This document shows, piece by piece, positions 1,581-57,901 of a stretch of DNA of 64,000 nt. Source of the stretch: a virus; the IMG/VR virus record IMGVR_UViG_3300045988_105030; one strand, given 5' to 3'. Position numbers and translations under genes: made by a program. The notes below the pieces were generated by a model. The model was not told where the DNA came from. It did not search any database and saw only the letters and a list, made by a program, of their open reading frames with translations. Every line of letters starts with the position of its first letter. Within the stretch, counting starts at the first letter, position 1.

Positions 1581-2540
1581 ATGGCGGAGCTTTTACCTAT
1601 GGATGCGGAAAAACAGCAGGCGTACTACGAACTGCTGGAGGAAGAAGTAGGAGAAAGCCTCGCCTTCTTTTATTGCTGCATTCGGTTTGATAAGCCCTTT
1701 GACATGAAGGCGATCCCCGCCAAGTCTGCAAAGGAAAAGTGGACGAGCTACTGCGAAAAGCTTGAAAAAAAGGGACTTGCCAAGACAAAGGGCGGCGGCG
1801 AGTACGGCTTTTTGGACGGCTTGACAGACATAAACCGCATATTCGGGACGGGACTTGCAAAAGGCGAGTTCAGCCGCGCCGTGGATCTGGAAAAAAGCGC
1901 CAGAGACGGGAAAAACGGAACAAAGCGGCAGGTAGCCGATTGGGGCGAGGGCGGCGAGAAAAGCCACTACACCACGGAGGACTACAACGAGTTTGACCGC
2001 ATTTATAACGCCCTGTGCGCCGACTTTGGCGGGGAGGGAAACGTGAGCGCCAAGCAGCAGCTGATATTGCGGAACGTGGCGAAGTGGACAAAGCAGATGA
2101 ACGATGCGGCGGAGCTGGGCCAGATCGACAAGGCAAAAAAGCTCTCCAGCATGATTCAGGAGAACCTGGCCTCGGAAAACCTGCGGAAAAAGGACACAAA
2201 GCCCGTGGAGGAGCTGCGGCTGGACAATATGGTGCTGGCGCTGGAACGAGCGGGACTTTTGAAAAACGGGAAGCCCTGCGACCCGGACGAGGCATTCAAG
2301 ATATTCTTCGGTAGACCGTGCAAATATCCCTACACCAGGGACGCCGCCGACCAGATGATTTTGATAAACGAAAACCGTATGCGGCAAAACGACGGAATGC
2401 CTGAATTAGCAGAGCTACCGGACGAGATGCGGCTGCGGGATGACTTGGGCGAGTTTGCAAAGGAACCCAACGAGGCGGAAAAAGAGGCATACGAAAAGCT
2501 TGGGCTTGTGCGAATGCGACCGGTGAAGGGGAGCGAGTGA
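1581..2540 (+). CDS. Hypothetical protein; candidate small terminase or packaging protein (by position only)
   Basis: ATG at 1581 after GGAAAGGGG. 319 aa, charged and helical, immediately upstream of the large terminase. Confidence 0.4.
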   Translation: MAELLPMDAEKQQAYYELLEEEVGESLAFFYCCIRFDKPFDMKAIPAKSAKEKWTSYCEKLEKKGLAKTKGGGEYGFLDGLTDINRIFGTGLAKGEFSRAVDLEKSARDGKNGTKRQVADWGEGGEKSHYTTEDYNEFDRIYNALCADFGGEGNVSAKQQLILRNVAKWTKQMNDAAELGQIDKAKKLSSMIQENLASENLRKKDTKPVEELRLDNMVLALERAGLLKNGKPCDPDEAFKIFFGRPCKYPYTRDAADQMILINENRMRQNDGMPELAELPDEMRLRDDLGEFAKEPNEAEKEAYEKLGLVRMRPVKGSE

Positions 2541-2541
2541 C

Positions 2542-4404
2542 GTGTCGCGGAGAACGGGTAAGGCGTATGTGACCGGCCTTGGCTGGGTCACGAAGAAGCC
2601 GACGCAGGAACGAAGCTATGAAAACTATGAGGACGCATTTTGGGCGTTTTTGATCTGGGTTTTCAGATGGTATCCAGATAAGGCGCTGGACATATTCCGC
2701 AGCGAAACGGCGGACTTCGCCAATGAGGAACTGTTGCAGCGAGTGATGGCGCGGGTGTATGCGCGAAAAGCGTCTGTTTCCTTTACGGGAACGCGAGGCG
2801 TGACAAAAACCAATACAAAGTTCAAGTATGCGGAGGTAAACGGCCTCGTGTGGCCCGGCGTACAGAGCGCGTATTACGGGCCGAGCTACAAGCAAATGGC
2901 TACCATCGGCAGCAAGACATACCACCAGACAGAGCATGACTACCCGGCACTGGCAAAGCAGTGGCGCGTGACGGCGGAGAGTAAGGACGACTTCAAAATC
3001 GAAACGGACTGCGGAAGTGCTTTCTATATCTCCGCCATGCGCGGTGACAATATCCACGATGTTACTGCCGAGGAGTACGCACAGGAAGAAAACCCGCCAT
3101 TTGACTTTGCCGAGTATACCACGGTTGTTCTGCCGGCGGTGCGACTGACCCACAACGTAGATGGAAAACCAGACGGGAACTACGTGGCGTATAAAGACCA
3201 TGCCATCACCAGTGCGGGGCGAAAGCAAAACCACGCATACGAAACGCGCTGCGAAAACATGAAGGCCATGTTGGCGGGAGAAAGCGCCTTTGCCTACGAC
3301 ATATCGTGGGAGTGTGTGGTGCTGCAGCAGATGCGGCCTTATTCATGGGCGCAAAAGCTGAAAACAAAACTGACCCCGGAGCGGTGGATGCGGGAGATGG
3401 AGAGCCGCTACACCGGCGCGGACAGCAACCCCATTGTGCGGGACGAGGTGCTGACAGAGAGCCGCAAGCTGATGATTGCGGAAAACCGGCACTGTGCCTT
3501 TGACCTGCAAAACAAGCTTGCGCCGCAGGATGTGATCTACATCGTGGGCTACGACGTATCCTACGCCGATGACAAGAAAAACGCAAAATGCGCCTGCGTG
3601 GTGCTGAAATGCACGCGGCAGACGGATTGGCTGAAGCGGGACAGATACCTCAAGCAGCTGGTGAATGTGGACGTTTGGAATCCGCCGGTCAAGAGCATGA
3701 TGCAGGCGCAGAAGATCAAGGACGTGTGGAGCCGGTTTTGCTGCGAGGGCGGCGCGCCCACCTACCTTGCCATAGATGCATGGCAGTACGGCACCAGCGT
3801 GGTGGAAAACCTGATGATGGACTTGGGTGACGGACTTGCCCCCCTGTGCGTAAGGAACCACGCCTCCTTTACGGAGCTGGAGCAGGACAACGCCATTCCG
3901 TGCCTTTACCCCATCAAGGCGGGCGGCGCGGGCGTGACAGACCCGGACGCAGAGATGGTGCGCTACGCCGAGCTGCAATTTGAAAACCGGAATGTAGAAC
4001 TGCTGTGCGGCAACGTGAACGAGGGCGTGGAGGCCTACAAGAAGCACCACAGGATTAAGGATGACTACATGGACGCGCAGATCGCCGAGCCGTACCTGAA
4101 AACGAGGGAACTGGCAGGGCAGATACAAAACCTGAAAAAAGTACCCAGCGGCACCACCATGCGGGAGGAACGGATTTCCAAGCACATCCAGCGAGACATC
4201 TGGTCAGCATTGAAATACGCACTGCGGGTGGCGCAGATTCTGGAGCGCGAGGAGCTGGCAAAATCCGTCCGGCACACCAGCGATTGGGATGCAGAGCTGG
4301 AGCGCTTCAAGGACGCTGAACAGAGCACCGCCTTGACGGCACATACGGCAGGTGCAGGGCGCGGACGCACGGTGACGGCGCGGCGGGGAGGAAGGATGTT
4401 TTAA
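2542..4404 (+). CDS. Terminase large subunit
   Basis: 620 aa with a GTG start 1 nt after the upstream stop. Lies before the portal. C-terminal RNaseH-like nuclease signature IYIVGYDVSYADD ... YLAIDAWQYG. Confidence 0.7.
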   Translation: MSRRTGKAYVTGLGWVTKKPTQERSYENYEDAFWAFLIWVFRWYPDKALDIFRSETADFANEELLQRVMARVYARKASVSFTGTRGVTKTNTKFKYAEVNGLVWPGVQSAYYGPSYKQMATIGSKTYHQTEHDYPALAKQWRVTAESKDDFKIETDCGSAFYISAMRGDNIHDVTAEEYAQEENPPFDFAEYTTVVLPAVRLTHNVDGKPDGNYVAYKDHAITSAGRKQNHAYETRCENMKAMLAGESAFAYDISWECVVLQQMRPYSWAQKLKTKLTPERWMREMESRYTGADSNPIVRDEVLTESRKLMIAENRHCAFDLQNKLAPQDVIYIVGYDVSYADDKKNAKCACVVLKCTRQTDWLKRDRYLKQLVNVDVWNPPVKSMMQAQKIKDVWSRFCCEGGAPTYLAIDAWQYGTSVVENLMMDLGDGLAPLCVRNHASFTELEQDNAIPCLYPIKAGGAGVTDPDAEMVRYAELQFENRNVELLCGNVNEGVEAYKKHHRIKDDYMDAQIAEPYLKTRELAGQIQNLKKVPSGTTMREERISKHIQRDIWSALKYALRVAQILEREELAKSVRHTSDWDAELERFKDAEQSTALTAHTAGAGRGRTVTARRGGRMF

Positions 4405-10430: not shown

Positions 10431-10517
10431 GCAGGATGAAGCCGCAAGGCGCGGCGGCGGTTTGCTAAACCGTTTCGCTCTGGCAAGGGTGGGGTTCGAG
10501 TCCTCCGTTCTGCGCCA
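10431..10517 (+). tRNA. tRNA-Ser(GCU)-like, phage-encoded, 87 nt with a long variable arm
   Basis: Acceptor GCAGGAT/GTTCTGC (2 G-U pairs). Anticodon arm GCGGT-TTGCTAA-ACCGT. T-loop TTCGAGT. G73 and an encoded CCA. The T stem is imperfect. Confidence 0.5.
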
Positions 10518-32166: not shown

Positions 32167-32322
32167 TTAGGGCTTTTCCACCAGTTCCACGGTGTCGGGA
32201 ATGAGCAGACGGGCGGCGGCTTCGGATTCCGCCTCGATGAGCATGGTAAACTCCTCGCCGTCCCGCTTGCGGCGGACACGGAAGGAATATTCCTGCTTGG
32301 TGACATTGGTGACAAGGTTCAT
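32167..32322 (-). CDS. Small hypothetical protein (51 aa)
   Basis: Its ATG overlaps the desulfurase stop (ATGA). Sequence MNLVTNVTKQEYSFRVRRKRDGEEFTMLIEAESEAAARLLIPDTVELVEKP. Below the ORF-track size cutoff. Confidence 0.35.
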   Translation of the reverse strand: MNLVTNVTKQEYSFRVRRKRDGEEFTMLIEAESEAAARLLIPDTVELVEKP

Positions 32323-33374
32323 ATTTGCATCTCCTTTCCGTGCTTCAGGTGGGGGACGAAGGCGGCGATGAGCTGCGCCGCCTCGTCCGCTTCGGACAGC
32401 GTATTCTGCCAGTCGAATGAGAAACGGACGGTGGACAGGGCTTCTTCTTCGGTGAGGCCGCTGGCGATGAGGTTTTCCGAGGCGCGATTCTCGCCGCTGG
32501 AGCAGGCGGAGCCGGTGGACACCATGACGCCGTGGTCACTCAGGGTGGCGGCAAGGGACGCGCCGTAGACGCCGGGGAAGGTGAGGGACAGGATGTGGGC
32601 GGCGGTGTTTTTGCCGCCGTTTACCCGGTATTCCACGCCGCTTTCCGTCAGGCGGTGCAAAAGGCGATCCCGCAGGTCGATGAGGTGGGTAATATTTTCC
32701 TCCATGTGGGCGGTGTGCCATTCCAGCGCCGACGCCATCGCGTAGGCCAGCGGCACGGACACCGTTCCGCCGCGCATACCGCGCTCCTGTGCGCCGCCGT
32801 GGAGCAGGGGGGTAATGGGACACCCCTGACGGACGATCAGCGCGCCTATGCCCTTGGGAGCGCCGAATTTGTGGCCTCCAAAGGCCATGTAGTCCACGCC
32901 GAGGGCGTGGAAGTCGATGGGGAGGTGTGCGACGGCGGCGGTGGCGTCTACTGCGACGCGAATGGGTCTGTTTTTGCGGCAGAAAGCGTCTATGTCGCTT
33001 ATCAGTCCAGTCTCGTTGTTGACGAGGGAAAGAATGGCGGAGGGCCTGCTGCGCGGCGCGTTAGGGGATGAATAGGCGTGGATGCCCTCGCTGACGGCGT
33101 GGTGAACGGTGCCGTTGTAGATGATGCCGTCGGACTCTATGCGAAGGCATTTGACCATCCAGTTGCAGGACTCGGTGGCGCCGGAGGTGAAGTAGACCTC
33201 GCAGGGGTCGCAGTTGAGGCACCGGGCGATGGCGGCGCGGGCGTTCTCCAGCGCGGCTTTTGCCTCACGGCCGGCGGCGTGGCTGCTGGATGGGTTTGCC
33301 TCCGGCGCGGCTTGCATGGCGTTCCACGCGCAGGGAAGCACCGGCGTGGTGGCGGCATTATCAAAGTAGATCAT
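32319..33374 (-). CDS. Cysteine desulfurase (NifS/IscS-like class V aminotransferase)
   Basis: 351 aa. PLP lysine in GGHKFGAPKG. Catalytic Cys in STGSACSSG. N-terminus IYFDNAATT. Confidence 0.85.
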   Translation of the reverse strand: MIYFDNAATTPVLPCAWNAMQAAPEANPSSSHAAGREAKAALENARAAIARCLNCDPCEVYFTSGATESCNWMVKCLRIESDGIIYNGTVHHAVSEGIHAYSSPNAPRSRPSAILSLVNNETGLISDIDAFCRKNRPIRVAVDATAAVAHLPIDFHALGVDYMAFGGHKFGAPKGIGALIVRQGCPITPLLHGGAQERGMRGGTVSVPLAYAMASALEWHTAHMEENITHLIDLRDRLLHRLTESGVEYRVNGGKNTAAHILSLTFPGVYGASLAATLSDHGVMVSTGSACSSGENRASENLIASGLTEEEALSTVRFSFDWQNTLSEADEAAQLIAAFVPHLKHGKEMQI

Positions 33375-34518: not shown

Positions 34519-34595
34519 TGGAGCAGCGTAGCGGATTTGAACCGCCACTCTCGGTTTGGAAGACCGGTGTGCTGACCGTTGAACACTAACGCTGC
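34519..34595 (-). tRNA. tRNA-Gly(UCC)
   Basis: 77 nt. Acceptor GCAGCGT/ACGCTGC. Anticodon loop CTTCCAA. T arm GGCGG-TTCAAAT-CCGCT. U73 and an encoded CCA. Confidence 0.75.
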
Positions 34596-34737
34596 ATGGG
34601 TGCCGCGCCATATCCCGCTTTGGCGGCGCGGTGGTTGGCCTTGGCCTCATCGTGTCTGTGGTTGCAGACATTCCGTCTGGCGGTGCCTTGCCGCCATAGT
34701 ACAGGCTGGACGGGAGGCCCCCAACGGGCGGCCATTT

Positions 34738-34808
34738 TGGGGCGGCGGGGTCTCGAACCCCAATTCAGCGATTCCGTCGCCAGCATTTACCTTTATGCTA
34801 CTCGCCCC
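34738..34808 (-). ncRNA. tRNA-like gene X2 with a non-canonical anticodon arm
   Basis: GGGGCGA acceptor (A7-C66 mismatch). D arm AGCA-TAAAGGTAAA-TGCT. T arm TGGGG-TTCGAGA-CCCCG. Middle arm TGGCGA-CGGAA-TCGCTG. No CCA. Confidence 0.45.
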
Positions 34809-34951
34809 AGGGTGGGTGCCGGTCTTTCCCGGCTGTCACCGCTGCGTGTCGGCTGCTTGCGGTTAGCCCCGATAGGTACACGTTTCTGCTTCCTTCTTGT
34901 GCTCTATCCCCGGAAGCCCGTTCAGCTTGTACTTCGCATGAGCACTGGATC

Positions 34952-35024
34952 TGGTGCAGACGGTTGGACTCGAACCAACGACATACCTCCTGGCGCGGTG
35001 CTCTACCGACTGAGCTACGTCTGC
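34952..35024 (-). ncRNA. tRNA-like gene X1 lacking a foldable anticodon arm
   Basis: Perfect acceptor GCAGACG/CGTCTGC. D arm GCTCAGTCGGTAGAGC. T arm GTTGG-TTCGAGT-CCAAC. Encoded ACCA. Only 19 unpaired nt (CCGCGCCAGGAGGTATGTC) lie between them. Confidence 0.5.
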
Positions 35025-35199
35025 ATTGAGGGGGGTGCTCGTCTTTCCGAGCCGCCAGATCTTTTCCGTGCCTTGCTTTTGCCAGCAGATCACAGGCGCA
35101 ATTACTGCATCAAGGCTTGAGGGGCTTACTTCAGGACTTCGCATCACCCAAACGGCTATCCCGCTAAAACGCTCGTCACTCGCGGTGTCCACGTAGAAT

Positions 35200-35275
35200 T
35201 GGAGGTATCGGTGGGGATCGGACCCACGACCTGCTCATTACGAATGAACTGCTCTGCCAGCTGAGCTACAACACC
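35200..35275 (-). tRNA. tRNA-Thr(CGU)
   Basis: 76 nt. Acceptor GGTGTTG/CGATACC (2 G-U pairs). Anticodon arm GTTCA-TTCGTAA-TGAGC. Unusual T-loop TCCGATC. Encoded CCA. Confidence 0.7.
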
Positions 35276-38371: not shown

Positions 38372-40285
38372 TCACATTCCGGGCAAGGCCACAAGTGCGC
38401 TGCCGGAGGTGATGAGCATGGAGGGGTCGGCAAGGGTCTTTTCGTAGCTGTCCGCGCCCTGGAAATCATCAATGACGGCCTGTTCTTCGGCGGTCATGTC
38501 GGCGTAGTGCTTTTTGCCGTAGGTGGGCGGCAGCCAGTTCTTTTTCTGACCGGCAAAGATGTTCAGACGGTCGATGATGCGGGATGCCTCCGGCTTGAAT
38601 TTAATGTGGCAAGTGCCCTTTTTGTAGAAAGTGCAGGTGAAGTAAGTAAAATCGGCCTTGTTGGTGTCGGCGGCGTTGGCGATGCGGACGGCGTGGTCTA
38701 TGGGCGTGTGGAAAGTAGTCTCGCCGCGATCCAGATAGTTCATGGCGCGTTCCAGGTCGGAGATCAGGGAGCTGACGCGGTAGGTGTCCAATTTTTCGCG
38801 GCTCAAACTGCTGGCGCAGCAGCCGTTGGCGGGGATGATGACCTTCATACCCACCTTGTGGGCCTTATTGGTGGCCCAGCCGTTATAGTAGTGAATATTA
38901 TTGGCGGACTCCGGGCACCAGGAGTGCTTGGCGGAGAAGGTCTCGAACAGCTCCAGGATGGATTCTTCCACGCCGCGGGTCAACTGGTGGGCGATCTCGC
39001 GGATGACGGACTCGATGTTATAGCGGGAGAAGTCATAGGCGGAGAGGGAACGGATCTTCTGCTGGTAGTCCTGCCGCATGGCGGAGGTCATTTTCGCGGT
39101 CAGCTCCGGACGCTGCAGCAGAAGGCCCCAATATTTTCCCCGCAGGCCGGAAAGATAGGAGTTGATCTGGGAAGCGGTGCCGTTGCCGCGCTTATCACAG
39201 CCTACGGTAAGGGACAGCAGAGGCTTGTCGTACTTGTCGCCGGTGTCGAAATAGGGCTTGAGGGCCTGAAACTCATGGATGATCTTTTCTCCCAATTTTG
39301 CCTCGAAATTATACCCTTCGATCAAATTTCCCATCCAGTCGGCAGAGGCGAGAGCGGAAGGATTGGTGGAAGAATTTTCGCTGTTTTCGCTGGCGCGGTG
39401 CAGTCCTTCCAGAATGTCGGAGGTGTAATTTTTGCGGGGGATATTCACATAGACCATGGCAATTTCAACGTCGCTGGAACGCTTGGCATGGCGGAAGGCG
39501 TCGGGGATGAACTCGATGCGGGCGTTATAATCGCTCAATTTTTGGGCCAGCAGCTTGCGGCGGTTGGTGTAGGGATTGCGGATGGTCTCGGCGTTCAAAA
39601 GGCACACGATCTGGCCGCCGCGCTCCATGAGGGACAGCGCTTGCAAGAGATGCTGGTCGCCGTTTTCAAAGGGGGGATTCATGATGCACAGGTCATACTG
39701 CTTGACGGTGCGGAAGGTGAGAAAATCATCGTGGACGACGTGCAGGCCCTTGCCGCGCAGAAGGGCGGCAAGGTCTGCGTCCTGCTCGATGCAGTCCAGA
39801 TAAGGCTCGTTGGCGTCGATATATATGCGGCTGCTGATCTTATGGCGGCGGGCGCGGATATGGCGATCCACGGCGTCGGCAAGGTCGCCTTTACCGGCGG
39901 AGGGTTCCAGAATGGTATAGACGCCCTCCCAGGACACGCAGGCCAACATTTTACCGGCCAATTTTGACGGCGTGGGGTAAAAACCGCTGTTGCTGAAGGA
40001 CGGCAGGCGGCGCACGTCGGCGCGGCTGGTAAGGGCGGCGGATTTTACGGCGTCAATGTTTTCATTGTACCAGTCGCGGACCAGCTTTTTCGCGGCGGCG
40101 ATGGTGGGGACATTGCCCAGCCATTTACCGCGGTCGGGATTTTCGCCCAGGATGGCGTAGACGGTGAAGCCGTCGCTGTTGCGATAGTTGTGGTTTTCGC
40201 GGATGGTGGCGATCTCCACGCCGAGGGCAGAGACCAGGATGATATTTTCGCGGTAGCGGTCTTTGGCGGTGGTGTATGTGAACAT
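38372..40285 (-). CDS. Orphan SAM-dependent DNA methyltransferase (N6-adenine type, NPPF motif) with a large C-terminal domain
   Basis: ATG at 40285 after GAAAGGAAA. 637 aa. AdoMet motif ILEPSAGKGDL and catalytic CIMNPPFENG. No adjacent restriction gene. Confidence 0.7.
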   Translation of the reverse strand: MFTYTTAKDRYRENIILVSALGVEIATIRENHNYRNSDGFTVYAILGENPDRGKWLGNVPTIAAAKKLVRDWYNENIDAVKSAALTSRADVRRLPSFSNSGFYPTPSKLAGKMLACVSWEGVYTILEPSAGKGDLADAVDRHIRARRHKISSRIYIDANEPYLDCIEQDADLAALLRGKGLHVVHDDFLTFRTVKQYDLCIMNPPFENGDQHLLQALSLMERGGQIVCLLNAETIRNPYTNRRKLLAQKLSDYNARIEFIPDAFRHAKRSSDVEIAMVYVNIPRKNYTSDILEGLHRASENSENSSTNPSALASADWMGNLIEGYNFEAKLGEKIIHEFQALKPYFDTGDKYDKPLLSLTVGCDKRGNGTASQINSYLSGLRGKYWGLLLQRPELTAKMTSAMRQDYQQKIRSLSAYDFSRYNIESVIREIAHQLTRGVEESILELFETFSAKHSWCPESANNIHYYNGWATNKAHKVGMKVIIPANGCCASSLSREKLDTYRVSSLISDLERAMNYLDRGETTFHTPIDHAVRIANAADTNKADFTYFTCTFYKKGTCHIKFKPEASRIIDRLNIFAGQKKNWLPPTYGKKHYADMTAEEQAVIDDFQGADSYEKTLADPSMLITSGSALVALPGM

Positions 40286-40364
40286 GGTGATTTTCCTTTC
40301 GTATGTTTTCGTTGTTGTGGTGATTATATCTGCCGTGTCAAGGCGGATTTTGCGGGGGTGGTGT

Positions 40365-41069
40365 TCAGGCGGATTTTCGGGCAGTGGGCCTGCGTACCGG
40401 CAGCAGGATCCCGAAACCGTCCGCGCTCTCAAAGTAGATGCCGCCAATGTCCGGGCGGTAGTTGGATGCCCGGAAGGACGCACCGGGGAGAATTTCCAAA
40501 ATATCCAGCAGGAAACGGGCGTCAACGGTGGGAAGGCCGTCGCCGAAGTCGTACAGGGGGAATTTTTCTTTTTTCCCTGCGGCCTTCAGCTCCGCGCCGC
40601 GCTGCTTGATATAGGCGCGAAGCTCCGCCGCCGTGGGTGCGGGCAGATATGCACCGCTGTTCCGGCTGGCTGGCTCGATGCAGTTCAGCGCGTCGAAGGT
40701 CTGATTTTCCGCCGTGGGGAGGTCGTTAAGGGGCGTGTTCAGGGCGATGGCAAGATAACCGTTGCACAAAATTTGCTTTCCGTCCTGTTCCCACGCGCCG
40801 CGCAGATCGTCCCGTGAGGAGGTCTTGAAGATATGCAGCGCGGCTTTTCTGGCGCTGCCGCGTCCGGCGGTTTTCGCGGCCTGCTGGGCGATGCCCTCCC
40901 GGAGATCGGCGGCGAGGTCTGCCAGGGCAAAACCGGCGTTATATCCGGCGCACTTGTGCAGCTCCGCCGCGTGGGTGGTGTAGTAGTTGAAGGCGTCCCG
41001 CTGTTCATCCGGCAGACGCTCCACCGCTGCCAGCAGCTTTTCCAGAATTTTTTCGTAGTTGATAGCCAT
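40365..41069 (-). CDS. Hypothetical protein; C-terminus resembles the last domain of the beta sliding clamp
   Basis: ATG at 41069 after GGAGG. 234 aa. VDARFLLDILEIL ... GGIYFESADGFGILLPVRR resembles the DnaN C-terminal motifs. Confidence 0.4.
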   Translation of the reverse strand: MAINYEKILEKLLAAVERLPDEQRDAFNYYTTHAAELHKCAGYNAGFALADLAADLREGIAQQAAKTAGRGSARKAALHIFKTSSRDDLRGAWEQDGKQILCNGYLAIALNTPLNDLPTAENQTFDALNCIEPASRNSGAYLPAPTAAELRAYIKQRGAELKAAGKKEKFPLYDFGDGLPTVDARFLLDILEILPGASFRASNYRPDIGGIYFESADGFGILLPVRRPTARKSA

Positions 41070-55933: not shown

Positions 55934-56234
55934 ATGAAAGTCCAGAACCAGAGCAATTTTACCCAGATGACACAGCAGAAGAAGCAGAAATTCAGCATGG
56001 CGATCACCGCCCCCAGCACACAGCAGATGATCTCCCGCGCCCTCAAAAACGAGCGCATGGCGGCACGGTTTACCTCCACCCTGATCTCCGCCGTAAGCGC
56101 CAGCGACCAGCTCAAGGAGTGTGACCCCGGCACCATCATTGCCGCCGGTCTCCGCGGCGAGGGCATGGGGCTTATTTACGGCCACGGCTACTACATCGTG
56201 CCCTACGGCAGCGTGGCCCAGTTCAATCTTGGCT
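55934..56234 (+). CDS. recT: RecT recombinase, exon 1
   Basis: ISAVSASDQLKECDPGTIIAAGLRGEGMGL..YIVPYGSVAQFNLG. The frame stops 1 codon after the splice point. Joins 57168..57901 in frame (345 codons in total). Confidence 0.75.
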
Positions 56235-57167
56235 AAACTTTTATGGTCAAGTAAAACCGCGTGAACCCTATTACTCAGGGGTGTGCCGCCACAAGGCGGT
56301 GCTAACGGTGAAACCCGTCGAAAAAGGGCAATACCGTGCTGCGGTATTTTTATTGGAGACAAGTATGACAGGTATTTATTTGATAACCAACAAGGTTTCT
56401 GGCGGTTCCTATGTTGGGAAAAGCGTAGATATTCACCGAAGATTTATTGAACACAGAACGGTGAATGCTGAACATAACGGAAGCTTGAAGGCAGCATTTT
56501 TGAAATACGGGGTTGAGTGCTTTTCTTTTGAAGTTTTGGAGGAGTGCCCTGTTGAGATGCTGAATGAGCGAGAAATGTACTACATCGATAAATTGAATCC
56601 TTCTTATAACCGCACAAAGGGTGGAGACGGGCGATCTCGAAGATTGACTCCGGCTGAAAAGGAACATTTGCGCCAGTGTGGAAAACGCCAATGGGCCAAT
56701 ATGTCCGAATCAGCAAGAGAGACGCAAATTCGCAACAACCTGAAAGGTCCTAAAGTTGGCCATCCTGTATCACAGGAAACGCGAGAAAAGCTTAGAAAAG
56801 CTAATATTGGGAAAACTGCCAGCCCCGAAACAATTGCAAAAAGAAAAACAACTATGGCAAAAAAAGGCATTGAGTTGTTTAACGGAAAGCGTTATATGCG
56901 CCCCATCCGCTGCATTGAAACGGGCGAAACCTTTGAGAGTTTGAAAGAAGCCGAAAAAAAGTACGGGCTAACAACTCTCTGCGCCCACTTAAAGGGGAAA
57001 TACAAAACCTGTAAAGGTCTCCATTACGAATACTTGAGTGTAGAGACTACCCGTGATGAATGTAGCGGGGTAGGGCAGAAGATGAGTTACTGCCCGAAGT
57101 GCGCGGCACACAAAAAAGTGTGAAGAGATAGTCCACCCCGGCGCGATGATAAAGCGCCGGAATAGTG
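56235..57167 (+). mobile_element. Group I self-splicing intron (933 nt) interrupting recT
   Basis: P1 CTTGGCT/GGTCAAG with a U-G pair at the 5' splice site. P7 GACTA/TAGTC within AGAGATAGTCC. P8 GGGCAG/CTGCCC. P9 CCGGCGC/GCGCCGG. Terminal G at 57167. Confidence 0.7.
56365..57123 (+). CDS. GIY-YIG homing endonuclease with NUMOD-type DNA-binding repeats (intron-encoded)
   Basis: GIYLITNKVSGGSYVGKS..RRFIEH..YYIDKLNPSYN. Repeats GHPVSQETREKLRKANIGK. Confidence 0.85.
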   Translation: MTGIYLITNKVSGGSYVGKSVDIHRRFIEHRTVNAEHNGSLKAAFLKYGVECFSFEVLEECPVEMLNEREMYYIDKLNPSYNRTKGGDGRSRRLTPAEKEHLRQCGKRQWANMSESARETQIRNNLKGPKVGHPVSQETREKLRKANIGKTASPETIAKRKTTMAKKGIELFNGKRYMRPIRCIETGETFESLKEAEKKYGLTTLCAHLKGKYKTCKGLHYEYLSVETTRDECSGVGQKMSYCPKCAAHKKV

Positions 57168-57901
57168 ATAAAGGTTACATCCAGCTGGCCATGTCCACGG
57201 GCTTTTACGAGGACATTGACTGCATCGAGGTGCGCGAGGGCGAACGGGAGGGGCGAGACGCCCGTACCGGAAAGCCCATTATCAACCTTGCCAAGTACGA
57301 AACGGACGAGGAGCGGGACGCCCACAAGATCATCGGCTATTACGCCTATTACAAGCTCAGCACCGGGGCGTTCCGCTCGGAATACTGGCCGATGGACAAG
57401 CTGCTGCGCCACGCAGACCGTTACTCCCCCGCCTTCAAGCTGGAGAAGTACAACGCCCTCATCAACGGTGAGTTGGACGCCAAGGAGCAGAGCAAGCTCC
57501 TGAACGGTACGCCTTGGTACGACGTGAACGGCGGGCAGGACAGAATGTGTAAAAAAACTGTGCTCCGCAGTCTGCTGAACAGCGGCTATGCCCCTCTTTC
57601 CAACGAGGTACGCAGCTACTTCAACGAGGACAGAGAGGACGGCGTTGTGACGGACATCCCCGCCGCTCCTGCGGAGAGTGCCATTCCCGTGACGGATTTC
57701 TCTGTCAACGAAGAAAATCGCGCCGCCAGCGACAAAACCACCGTAGAACGCCACCGGAACGCGCCTGTTGGCGATGAAACCTCTGCCGAGGGTGAGGATA
57801 CCGCCCCGACCAAAAAGCGCGTAGAACGCAAGGAAACGGCAAATGCGGCGGTCGAGAGCACGGAGGACTTTTCCAAGGGTTTCTTTGGGGAGGGCGAGTA
57901 A
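57168..57901 (+). CDS. recT: RecT recombinase, exon 2
   Basis: Splicing restores ..AQFNLG-YKGYIQLAMSTGFY.. (RecT GYKG motif). The ATG at 57146 in the ORF track lies inside intron P9. Confidence 0.75.

Follow-up and report, generated by a model that had tools for sequence, protein, structure and literature searches.

The 64,000 nucleotides (nt) of viral DNA analyzed here (IMG/VR record IMGVR_UViG_3300045988_105030, one strand), which will be referred to as the window and whose first letter is position 1, carry a gene for the recombinase RecT that is interrupted by a 933-nt insert. The evidence presented below favors, with a probability of roughly nine in ten, that this insert is a mobile group I intron of IA type in a phage recT gene, and that it harbors a GIY-YIG homing endonuclease gene; both its splicing and the cleavage of DNA by the endonuclease are what we infer from the sequence. 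Three lines of evidence carry this proposal, namely the recT frame restored by joining the exons, a fold whose helices covary in related introns, and the near identity of the intron in close relatives whose flanking exons have diverged.

Interruption of recT and its junction

The original prediction, made from the letters alone, placed the end of a RecT-like open reading frame (ORF) at 56236 and the resumption of a second one beyond the 933-nt insert, and proposed that the joining of T56234 to A57168 restores the frame; coordinates and sequence were found to be as given. The first ORF is closed by TAA 56234-56236, and the joined exons (301 + 734 = 1035 nt) correspond to 344 codons plus a stop. 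The in-frame junction is GGC-T^AT-AAA-GGT-TAC (the caret marks the insertion point here and below), and the insertion falls after the first base of a Tyr codon in the GYKG motif of recT. The spliced junction is predicted to read ..AATCTTGGCT^ATAAAGGTTAC.., and the predicted 30-mer of ligated exons is CAGTTCAATCTTGGCTATAAAGGTTACATC. The boundary could be shifted one base 3' without altering the spliced product, and it was set after U56234 because only there are a U at position -1 and a G as the last intron base both obtained. The latter is the terminal G that had been pointed out at 57167.

Judged from their sequences, the two ORFs are one recT gene. The Pfam RecT profile (PF03837) was matched in a single stretch only after joining (profile positions 2-187, E = 7.9e-21); exon 2 by itself covers positions 63-187, and no Pfam family was matched by the exon 1 product by itself. 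In alignments, this product corresponds to residues 1-100 of uninterrupted homologs of 344 amino acids (aa). When the joined 344-aa sequence was compared with 5.8 billion proteins, more than 50 clusters of 338-346 aa matched it over 100% of its length at 57-93% identity, and these uninterrupted homologs read ..AQFNLGYKGYIQLA.. or ..ATYMMSYKGYIQLA.. at the aligned junction. The sequence ..LGYKGYIQLA.., which the joining of the exons generates, is found in proteins encoded without interruption, and the comparison with homologs that had been suggested as a check on the junction speaks for a single gene. The residues K102, G103 and Y104 are invariant among the aligned RecT homologs, and the solved RecT of a Listeria phage (PDB 7UB2) aligns straight through the junction (2.2e-24), with AQFQLGYKGYIQLA aligned (..AQFNLG^YKGYIQLA.. 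in the window protein). In the paper describing that structure, no residue-level text on the role of the YKG residues was found. At the nucleotide level, an intron-less locus (L001; related loci are given by such numbers) differs from the window at the insertion point by exactly the 933-nt insert, and its gene order is the same (YqaJ exonuclease, DUF1351, RecT, SSB, replication protein, DnaB).

In each contig that bears the intron, gene callers predict three distinct products (100, 252 and 251 aa), which would fit two genes that are separate by nature, or the insertion of a free-standing endonuclease gene between two such genes, without any RNA splicing. This explanation, to which we assign practically no weight, is refuted by the homologs, by Pfam and by covariation: uninterrupted 344-aa homologs reach 93% identity, exon 1 has no family of its own, and the flanks of the endonuclease gene fold as a covarying group I core, as described below. 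The 251-aa ORF, moreover, starts at ATG 57146, within the P9 hairpin of that core, and its first eight residues are absent from every homolog; on this sequence evidence it is an annotation artefact. About nine clusters of 241-251 aa recovered in the same protein search represent the exon 2 ORF of other intron-bearing copies (P0051, P0099, P0102, P0103, P0107-P0109, P0111 and P0112; in the window, the called 251-aa "RecT" spans 57146-57901), and exon 1 (55934-56236) stands in public gene calls as a 100-aa orphan. As currently annotated, an intron-bearing recT is split into three unrelated products, and at least nine public protein clusters are truncated "RecT" artefacts.

The proposed intron fold and its relatives

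The elements of the proposed fold follow each other in the order P1, P10, P3, two extra hairpins, P4, P5, P6, P6a (with the ORF in its loop), P7, P7.1, P7.2, P3', P8, P7', P9 and the terminal guanosine (omega G), and all helices pair in the window copy (Table 1). Among the hallmarks of a group I intron listed in the original prediction, P1 with its U•G pair at the splice site, P7 and P9 form all of their pairs, and P7 gains a further one, G57043-C57134, across the bulged A57044. The assignment of GGGCAG/CUGCCC to P8 had to be abandoned because this hairpin lies 5' of the P3 3' strand; it corresponds to P7.2, and the real P8 is formed by CACAC/GUGUG. The helices from P3 to P6, absent from that list, were identified here. 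The intron thus presents a U•G-ended P1 with an internal guide, an omega G with P10, a P3/P7 pseudoknot around P8 and a P4-P5-P6 domain. P7, in which the bulged A57044 adjoins the G57045-C57133 pair, is the presumed guanosine-binding helix, and the P9 region consists of one hairpin only between P7 and the omega G, with a possible P9.0 of 2 bp.

Table 1. Positions in the window of the recT exons, the intron, its helical elements and the endonuclease gene.
Feature	Coordinates	Strand	Details
recT exon 1	55934-56234	+	301 nt; 100 codons plus the first base of the Tyr codon; boundaries from the ORF list and the sequence
Group I intron	56235-57167	+	933 nt; exact indel relative to intron-less L001; fold supported
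recT exon 2	57168-57901	+	734 nt; residues 101-344
GIY-YIG homing endonuclease gene	56365-57123	+	252 aa; ATG 56365, TGA 57121-23
P1	56228-34 / 56245-51	+	exon end CUUGGCU with guide GGUCAAG; 7/7 pairs; U56234•G56245 at the splice site
P10 guide	56238-56244 with 57168-74	+	CUUUUAU with exon 2 AUAAAGG; 7/7 pairs; directly 5' of the P1 guide
P3 5' strand	56257-56262	+	CCGCGU; partner GCGCGG 57101-06
P3 3' strand	57101-57106	+	GCGCGG
Extra hairpin 1, between P3 and P4	56266-69 / 56277-80	+	CCCU/AGGG
Extra hairpin 2, between P3 and P4	56283-90 / 56295-302	+	GUGCCGCC/GGCGGUGC
P4	56305-10 / 56332-37	+	ACGGUG/UACCGU; encloses P5
P5	56314-16 / 56326-28	+	CCC/GGG; J4/5 and J5/4 A-rich
P6	56339-40 / 57037-38	+	CU/AG
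P6a	56343-60 / 57017-34	+	16/18 pairs form; recovered in the minimum free energy fold; endonuclease ORF in loop
3' strands of P6a and P6	57017-57038	+	within the end of the endonuclease ORF
P7 5' strand	57043-57049	+	G57043, bulged A57044, GACUA 57045-49; inside conserved element GUGUAGAGACUA
P7 3' strand	57129-57134	+	UAGUCC, inside AAGAGAUAGUCC; G57043-C57134 pair spans bulged A57044
P7.1 hairpin	57050-57069	+	CCCG/CGGG; loop UGAUGAAUGUAG
P7.2 hairpin	57073-57095 (57073-78 / 57090-95)	+	GGGCAG/CUGCCC; loop AAGAUGAGUUA
P8 hairpin	57107-57122 (57107-11 / 57118-22)	+	CACAC/GUGUG; loop AAAAAA
P9 hairpin	57138-57160 (57138-44 / 57154-60)	+	CCGGCGC/GCGCCGG; loop GAUGAUAAA
Omega G (terminal guanosine)	57167	+	last intron base

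The intron has a GC content of 45%, compared to 59% in the exons. Deprived of its ORF, it folds with a z-score of -6.7 relative to 200 shuffles, and the minimum free energy fold of this RNA recovers P1, the long-range P3, P4, P5, P6/P6a, P8 and P9. Several alternative pairings were considered and rejected. A P3 made of GUGCCGC (56283-89) and GCGGCAC (57103-09) was discarded, both strands having better, covarying partners (the hairpin at 56283-302 and P8, respectively). Local hairpins ACGG/CCGU (56305-18) and AUACCG/CGGUAU (56332-47) are not kept in L268, L215 and L228, and their strands pair instead as P4, in which L192 shows a compensatory change. Finally, a closing stem CAAGUAU (56360-66) / AUACUUG (57030-36) was set aside for P6a, whose 18 positions match the register of the stem of L268.

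The group I interpretation received support from compensatory changes. Relatives were collected by scanning viral contigs for the two P7 consensus elements, and the ORF-deleted introns of 10 of them were aligned, the structure (57 pairs in 12 helices) being mapped from the window copy. Of the cells, 91.3% were paired, compared to 73.1% in shuffles, and none of 500 shuffles reached the observed value; 35 of the 57 pairs change on both sides, and when, as a control, the 3' partners were displaced by 1-3 columns, 33-45% of the cells were paired. The best supported helices are P3, P7.1, P8, P9 and the second extra hairpin, and P7 is invariant among the 10 aligned relatives. Both-sided changes affect four of the six P3 pairs (98% of cells paired; e.g., CCUUGU/GCAAGG, CGAUGU/GCAUCG and UUUUGU/GCAAAA), six of the eight pairs of the second extra hairpin, all four of P7.1 (CCUG/CAGG, UGGG/CCCA, ACCG/CGGU and GUCA/UGAC), three of the six of P7.2, all five of P8 and six of the seven of P9 (e.g., CCUGCCG/CGGCAGG and CAUACAA/UUGUAUG). 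The P8 stem of L268 is longer through A to G and A to C changes in the loop. In P4, a G-C pair is replaced by A-U in L192 and a U-A pair by G-C in L239, the sequence of variable length being the loop of P5 (L5). Read by eye, P1 is compensatory in relatives and keeps the U•G pair (UGGGGU/GCCCCA in L228, CAUGGGU/GCUCAUG in L241), and P6a is formed in L268 in the same register by a different sequence (GAUACUCAAAAUG/CAUUUUGAGUAUU); the C57021U variant of L002 and L004 retains a G•U pair in this helix.

The loops of P7.1 (57054-57065, UGAUGAAUGUAG), P7.2 (57079-57089, AAGAUGAGUUA) and P9 (57145-57153, GAUGAUAAA) all contain GAUGA-like motifs, and these are kept in distant relatives, including ORF-less introns and the loop that lies outside the ORF. 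Such conservation suggests tertiary contacts or a protein-binding site.

The same recT codon holds a homologous intron with a GIY-YIG gene in five further lineages (L268/L187/L181, L192, L228, L215 and L206), whose recT is 30-62% and whose endonuclease is 26-69% identical to that of the window, which brings to six the diverged recT lineages of gut phages with an intron at this codon. The choice of codon agrees with the rule by which homing endonucleases target sites that are invariant and under functional constraint, as K102, G103 and Y104 are invariant. The RNA class is also present in other genes (L229, L241, L277, L239 and L305). In L206 (minus strand, ~2300-3240 in reverse complement), a sixth recT-like gene (..QFQIG^YKGYLDLA..) carries an intron of the same class, with its endonuclease, at the same codon; this gene is too diverged for tblastn with the window protein, and its intron has a P2 hairpin. 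When 164 recT loci of viral and genome collections were examined by tblastn, no interrupted recT came to light besides L002-L004. Among the matches listed, no ORF-less member of the class lies inside recT (112 loci), and the two hairpins between P3 and P4 are present in 49 of 114 ORF-less introns. Two loci (L209, 1513-2980, and L319, 171-2908, both on the minus strand) hold three Rfam-positive group I introns each within 1.5-2.8 kb, presumably in one gene or in neighboring genes.

The scoring with group I models that had been proposed as a check succeeded only indirectly. No Rfam group I model matched the window copy, either over the whole window at the gathering threshold or for 56150-57250 and the 3' domain at E values up to 10; we attribute this to the 759-nt ORF in the P6a loop and do not read it as the absence of an intron. 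The ORF-less sister L305, whose 5' core is ~85-90% identical and whose P3-to-P4 region is nearly the same, with compensatory changes, scores 54.5 bits on RF00028 (Intron_gpI; threshold 50). L277 attains 47.7 bits (E = 3e-11) on this model, which puts its P3 on the wrong strand because the class has an insert between P3 and P4. Canonical relatives sharing the motifs of the 3' domain (P7 to P3') score 72-82 bits. The RF00028 model aligns with the conserved elements of P4, P7 and J8/7 in the relatives, the GUGUAGAGACUA/AAGAGAUAGUCC elements falling at its P7 positions. The standard model thus misses ORF-bearing copies entirely and leaves many ORF-less members of the class below threshold, so intron counts in phage metagenomes are probably too low.

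In canonical group I introns, P3 and P4 are joined by 3 nt, and it is here that the recT intron has the two extra hairpins. Regarding the subgroup, IA2 introns are characterized by P7.1 and P7.2 together with an extended P9 domain comprising P9.0, P9.1 and P9.2 (PMC4227781). Both P7.1 and P7.2 are present in the recT intron, in the interval from P7 to the P3 3' strand, and both covary, but P9.1 and P9.2 are lacking, and the intron was therefore filed as IA-type and not strictly as IA2. An optional group I pairing named P3.1 has been described (PMC3873408), and its identity with the extra hairpins could not be confirmed. A broader notion, which we consider rather doubtful, is that the intron belongs to a widespread, undescribed IA-type subclass, distinguished by two J3/4 hairpins and largely missed at Rfam thresholds, and that it may tie homing to RecT repair. 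According to this notion, the recT of a rival phage would be broken by the endonuclease and the break mended by the spliced RecT of the donor.

Endonuclease, probable mobility and alternative explanations

The insert had been predicted to encode a GIY-YIG/NUMOD endonuclease. The first half of this description holds: the Pfam GIY-YIG family (PF01541) is matched at 1e-11 (45.4 bits, cut-off 22.6), and the catalytic domain of I-TevI (1MK0/1LN0) at 1.4e-4, with GIY, YVG and the catalytic Arg and Glu aligned. The NUMOD label was overstated, as NUMOD3 reaches 15.4 bits (E = 0.019), below its cut-off of 20.4. The nearest homologs in GenBank phages are less than 33% identical, and alignments with phage homologs extend over 85-95% of the length. 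No copy has a disrupted ORF, and in L002-L004 gene callers likewise predict the 252-aa product. The protein is a candidate for a new site-specific nuclease whose natural target is defined. Its ribosome-binding site, GGAGA (56355-59), is located 5 nt before ATG 56365 and within the P6a helix, an arrangement that may limit translation from the folded RNA.

The original observation that the 3' end of the ORF runs into the P7-P8 core was confirmed and extended: the ORF traverses P6', P7, P7.1, P7.2, P3' and P8, that is, 82 nt of core (the last ~27 codons), with its stop in J8/7. In relatives, the endonuclease ORF stops 2, 9, 37, 43 or 64 nt into the core. Because these points differ so much, the tail of the ORF over the core is considered read-through, and the possibility of a conserved dual-coding, zinc-finger-like segment was rejected.

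Recent mobility was deduced from the comparison of the intron with its flanks. The intron is identical to those of L002 and L004 at 930 and 929 of 933 positions, respectively (99.6-99.7%), whereas exon 1 is 94-95% and exon 2 89% identical, and the first mismatches occur 35 nt upstream and 20 nt downstream of the intron. A near-identical intron with sharp borders in diverged flanks indicates, at the sequence level, a pattern of recent homing with short co-conversion tracts. The spliced frames are intact in all intron-bearing alleles, and the codon differences are mostly synonymous (synonymous:nonsynonymous, 38:5, 45:19 and 32:16), from which it follows that recT is still under selection, and this requires splicing. 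In addition, 30 of the 31 intron differences in L003 fall in the ORF-only part and one in the 278 nt of the RNA-only parts (Fisher p = 4e-4), a distribution that would reflect selection on the intron RNA.

The junction of intron-bearing alleles is T^ATAAAGG or T^ATAAGGG, both compatible with P10, and that of intron-less alleles is T^ACAAGGG or T^ACAAAGG in 72 of 73 sampled, the exception being L031 (T^ATAAGGG). Two types of intron-less junction were distinguished, ..CTTGGGT^ACAAGGGATAC.., that of L001, and ..ATGTCGT^ACAAGGGC.. In close intron-less alleles (L001, L005-L084; site equivalent to window 56220-56234), the five residues preceding the insertion point exist in two versions, AQFNLG, as in intron-bearing alleles, or ATYMMS, in proteins otherwise ~90% identical. 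This local mosaic could be the scar of past gain and loss of the intron.

Some observations weigh against a functional, mobile intron. Splicing is deduced from the DNA sequence; the window copy has no direct Rfam match at any threshold, which the 759-nt ORF inside the fold would explain; its fold departs from the textbook in the absence of P2, in the two hairpins between P3 and P4 and in the single-hairpin P9; and beside the insertion site, 2-4 synonymous positions set 72 of the 73 intron-less alleles sampled apart from the junction of intron-bearing ones. The indirect nature of the evidence for splicing, the missing Rfam match and the atypical layout would all suit a decayed group I intron that no longer splices, recT being then a split pseudogene and the phage reliant on host recombination. 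Such decay appears highly improbable in view of the exons, whose frame is preserved and which are subject to purifying selection in all alleles with the intron, and of the RNA-only parts, nearly invariant while the ORF drifts. Furthermore, the core helices all pair and covary across lineages, and many ORF-less phage introns show this atypical layout too, one of them scoring above the Rfam threshold.

The differences at the insertion site, in turn, would be accommodated by an intron that splices but is immobile, its endonuclease being inactive or having another role (e.g., as a maturase) and its distribution resulting from vertical descent and ordinary recombination. The endonuclease and recT do diverge together (69% with 52-62%, 43% with 30-36% and 39% with ~30%), as in long-term co-descent, and the DNA-binding NUMOD3 motif is below threshold. 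Within the close clade, however, the intron is far more conserved than its flanks and the borders lie 20-35 nt from the splice sites, which is the signature of recent transfer, and the intact ORF with its aligned catalytic residues also speaks against immobility, so we regard this explanation as unlikely.

For the mobile, self-splicing intron that we favor, the sequence of events can be envisaged by analogy with canonical group I splicing. Within the pre-mRNA, P1 would arise from the pairing of the final seven bases of exon 1 with the guide GGUCAAG, placing U56234•G56245 at the splice site, and a free guanosine bound in P7 would attack after U56234. Next, G57167 would occupy the guanosine site while P10 (56238-44 / 57168-74) aligns exon 2, and the ligation of the exons would generate GGC-UAU-AAA-GGU and restore the 344-aa RecT. 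The endonuclease, for its part, would cut the intron-less recT of related phages near the insertion site, and repair from the intron-bearing copy would transfer the intron along with no more than some tens of bases from the adjoining exons. If the enzyme acts like I-TevI, the cut might fall some 20-30 bp upstream of the insertion site, which is a guess; CAGCG at -26 to -22 agrees with the CNNNG motif of I-TevI.

The phage represented by the window is temperate and of gut Clostridia type; it encodes an integrase, a tape-measure protein of the tail and the module YqaJ-DUF1351-RecT-SSB-DnaB. Three tRNA genes for Gly-TCC, Ser-GGA and Thr-CGT are clustered at 34519-35275 on the minus strand (ARAGORN; Rfam also finds three, at slightly shifted positions), and a fourth, tRNA-Ser(GCT), called by ARAGORN only, lies amid structural genes at 10431-10517. 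On the minus strand, the block that separates the tail genes from the integrase contains genes for a class-V aminotransferase-like protein (32319-33374; 3.6e-50) and a 717-aa DUF4942 protein (38372-40525), both unusual phage cargo.

Comparison with known systems

The element described here is of a well-known selfish kind, and recT is, as far as the literature was checked, a previously unreported host gene. The original prediction had already regarded recT as an unusual host, and this was borne out: no report of an intron in recT was found in the literature, none of the best 60 of 246 GenBank phage recT matches is interrupted, and blastn of the region against 50,697 GenBank phages returned one record, with the match confined to the recT exons. 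RecT, a single-strand annealing recombinase, thereby joins the DNA-metabolism genes invaded by phage group I introns.

In the Bacillus cereus group, group I introns have been described in recA, nrdE and nrdF, some of them with GIY-YIG endonucleases (PMC3984707; PMC2248736). They share with the recT intron the membership in group IA, the location in recombination or nucleotide-metabolism genes and, in some cases, a GIY-YIG homing endonuclease. However, recA is unrelated to recT in sequence family, and the comparison made here is one of description. Alike in their 3' domain are the orf142 introns of the Staphylococcus phage Twort, IA2 introns with a solved ribozyme structure, whose grammar we take to be the same as that of the recT class (AGACUA - P7.1 - GUAG - P7.2 - CGAA.. 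- P3' - P8 - ..AUAGUC, found in many members, e.g., L237 and L209). The Twort introns differ in having a canonical P3-J3/4-P4 junction, a longer P9 region and other host genes.

A further close counterpart is the td intron of phage T4 (IA2), which encodes I-TevI. Its host gene is that of thymidylate synthase instead of recT, and the recT intron differs from it in the lack of P2 and of P9.1/P9.2, in the two extra hairpins between P3 and P4 and in an ORF that extends 82 nt into the P7-P8 core; moreover, similarity between the two endonucleases is detectable in the catalytic domain only (E = 1.4e-4). The two introns nonetheless agree in interrupting a DNA-metabolism gene of a phage at a conserved site, in having P7.1 and P7.2 between P7 and the 3' strand of P3, and in carrying a GIY-YIG endonuclease gene in a loop that extends from P6a. 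The P4 region of td, which we take to read ..UAAACGGGGAA.. and ..CAAUCCCGUGCU.., resembles UAACGGUGAA and CAAUACCGUGCU of the window. Likewise, the ribosome-binding site of the td endonuclease is reportedly sequestered in RNA structure, and we infer an equivalent arrangement for that of the recT intron.

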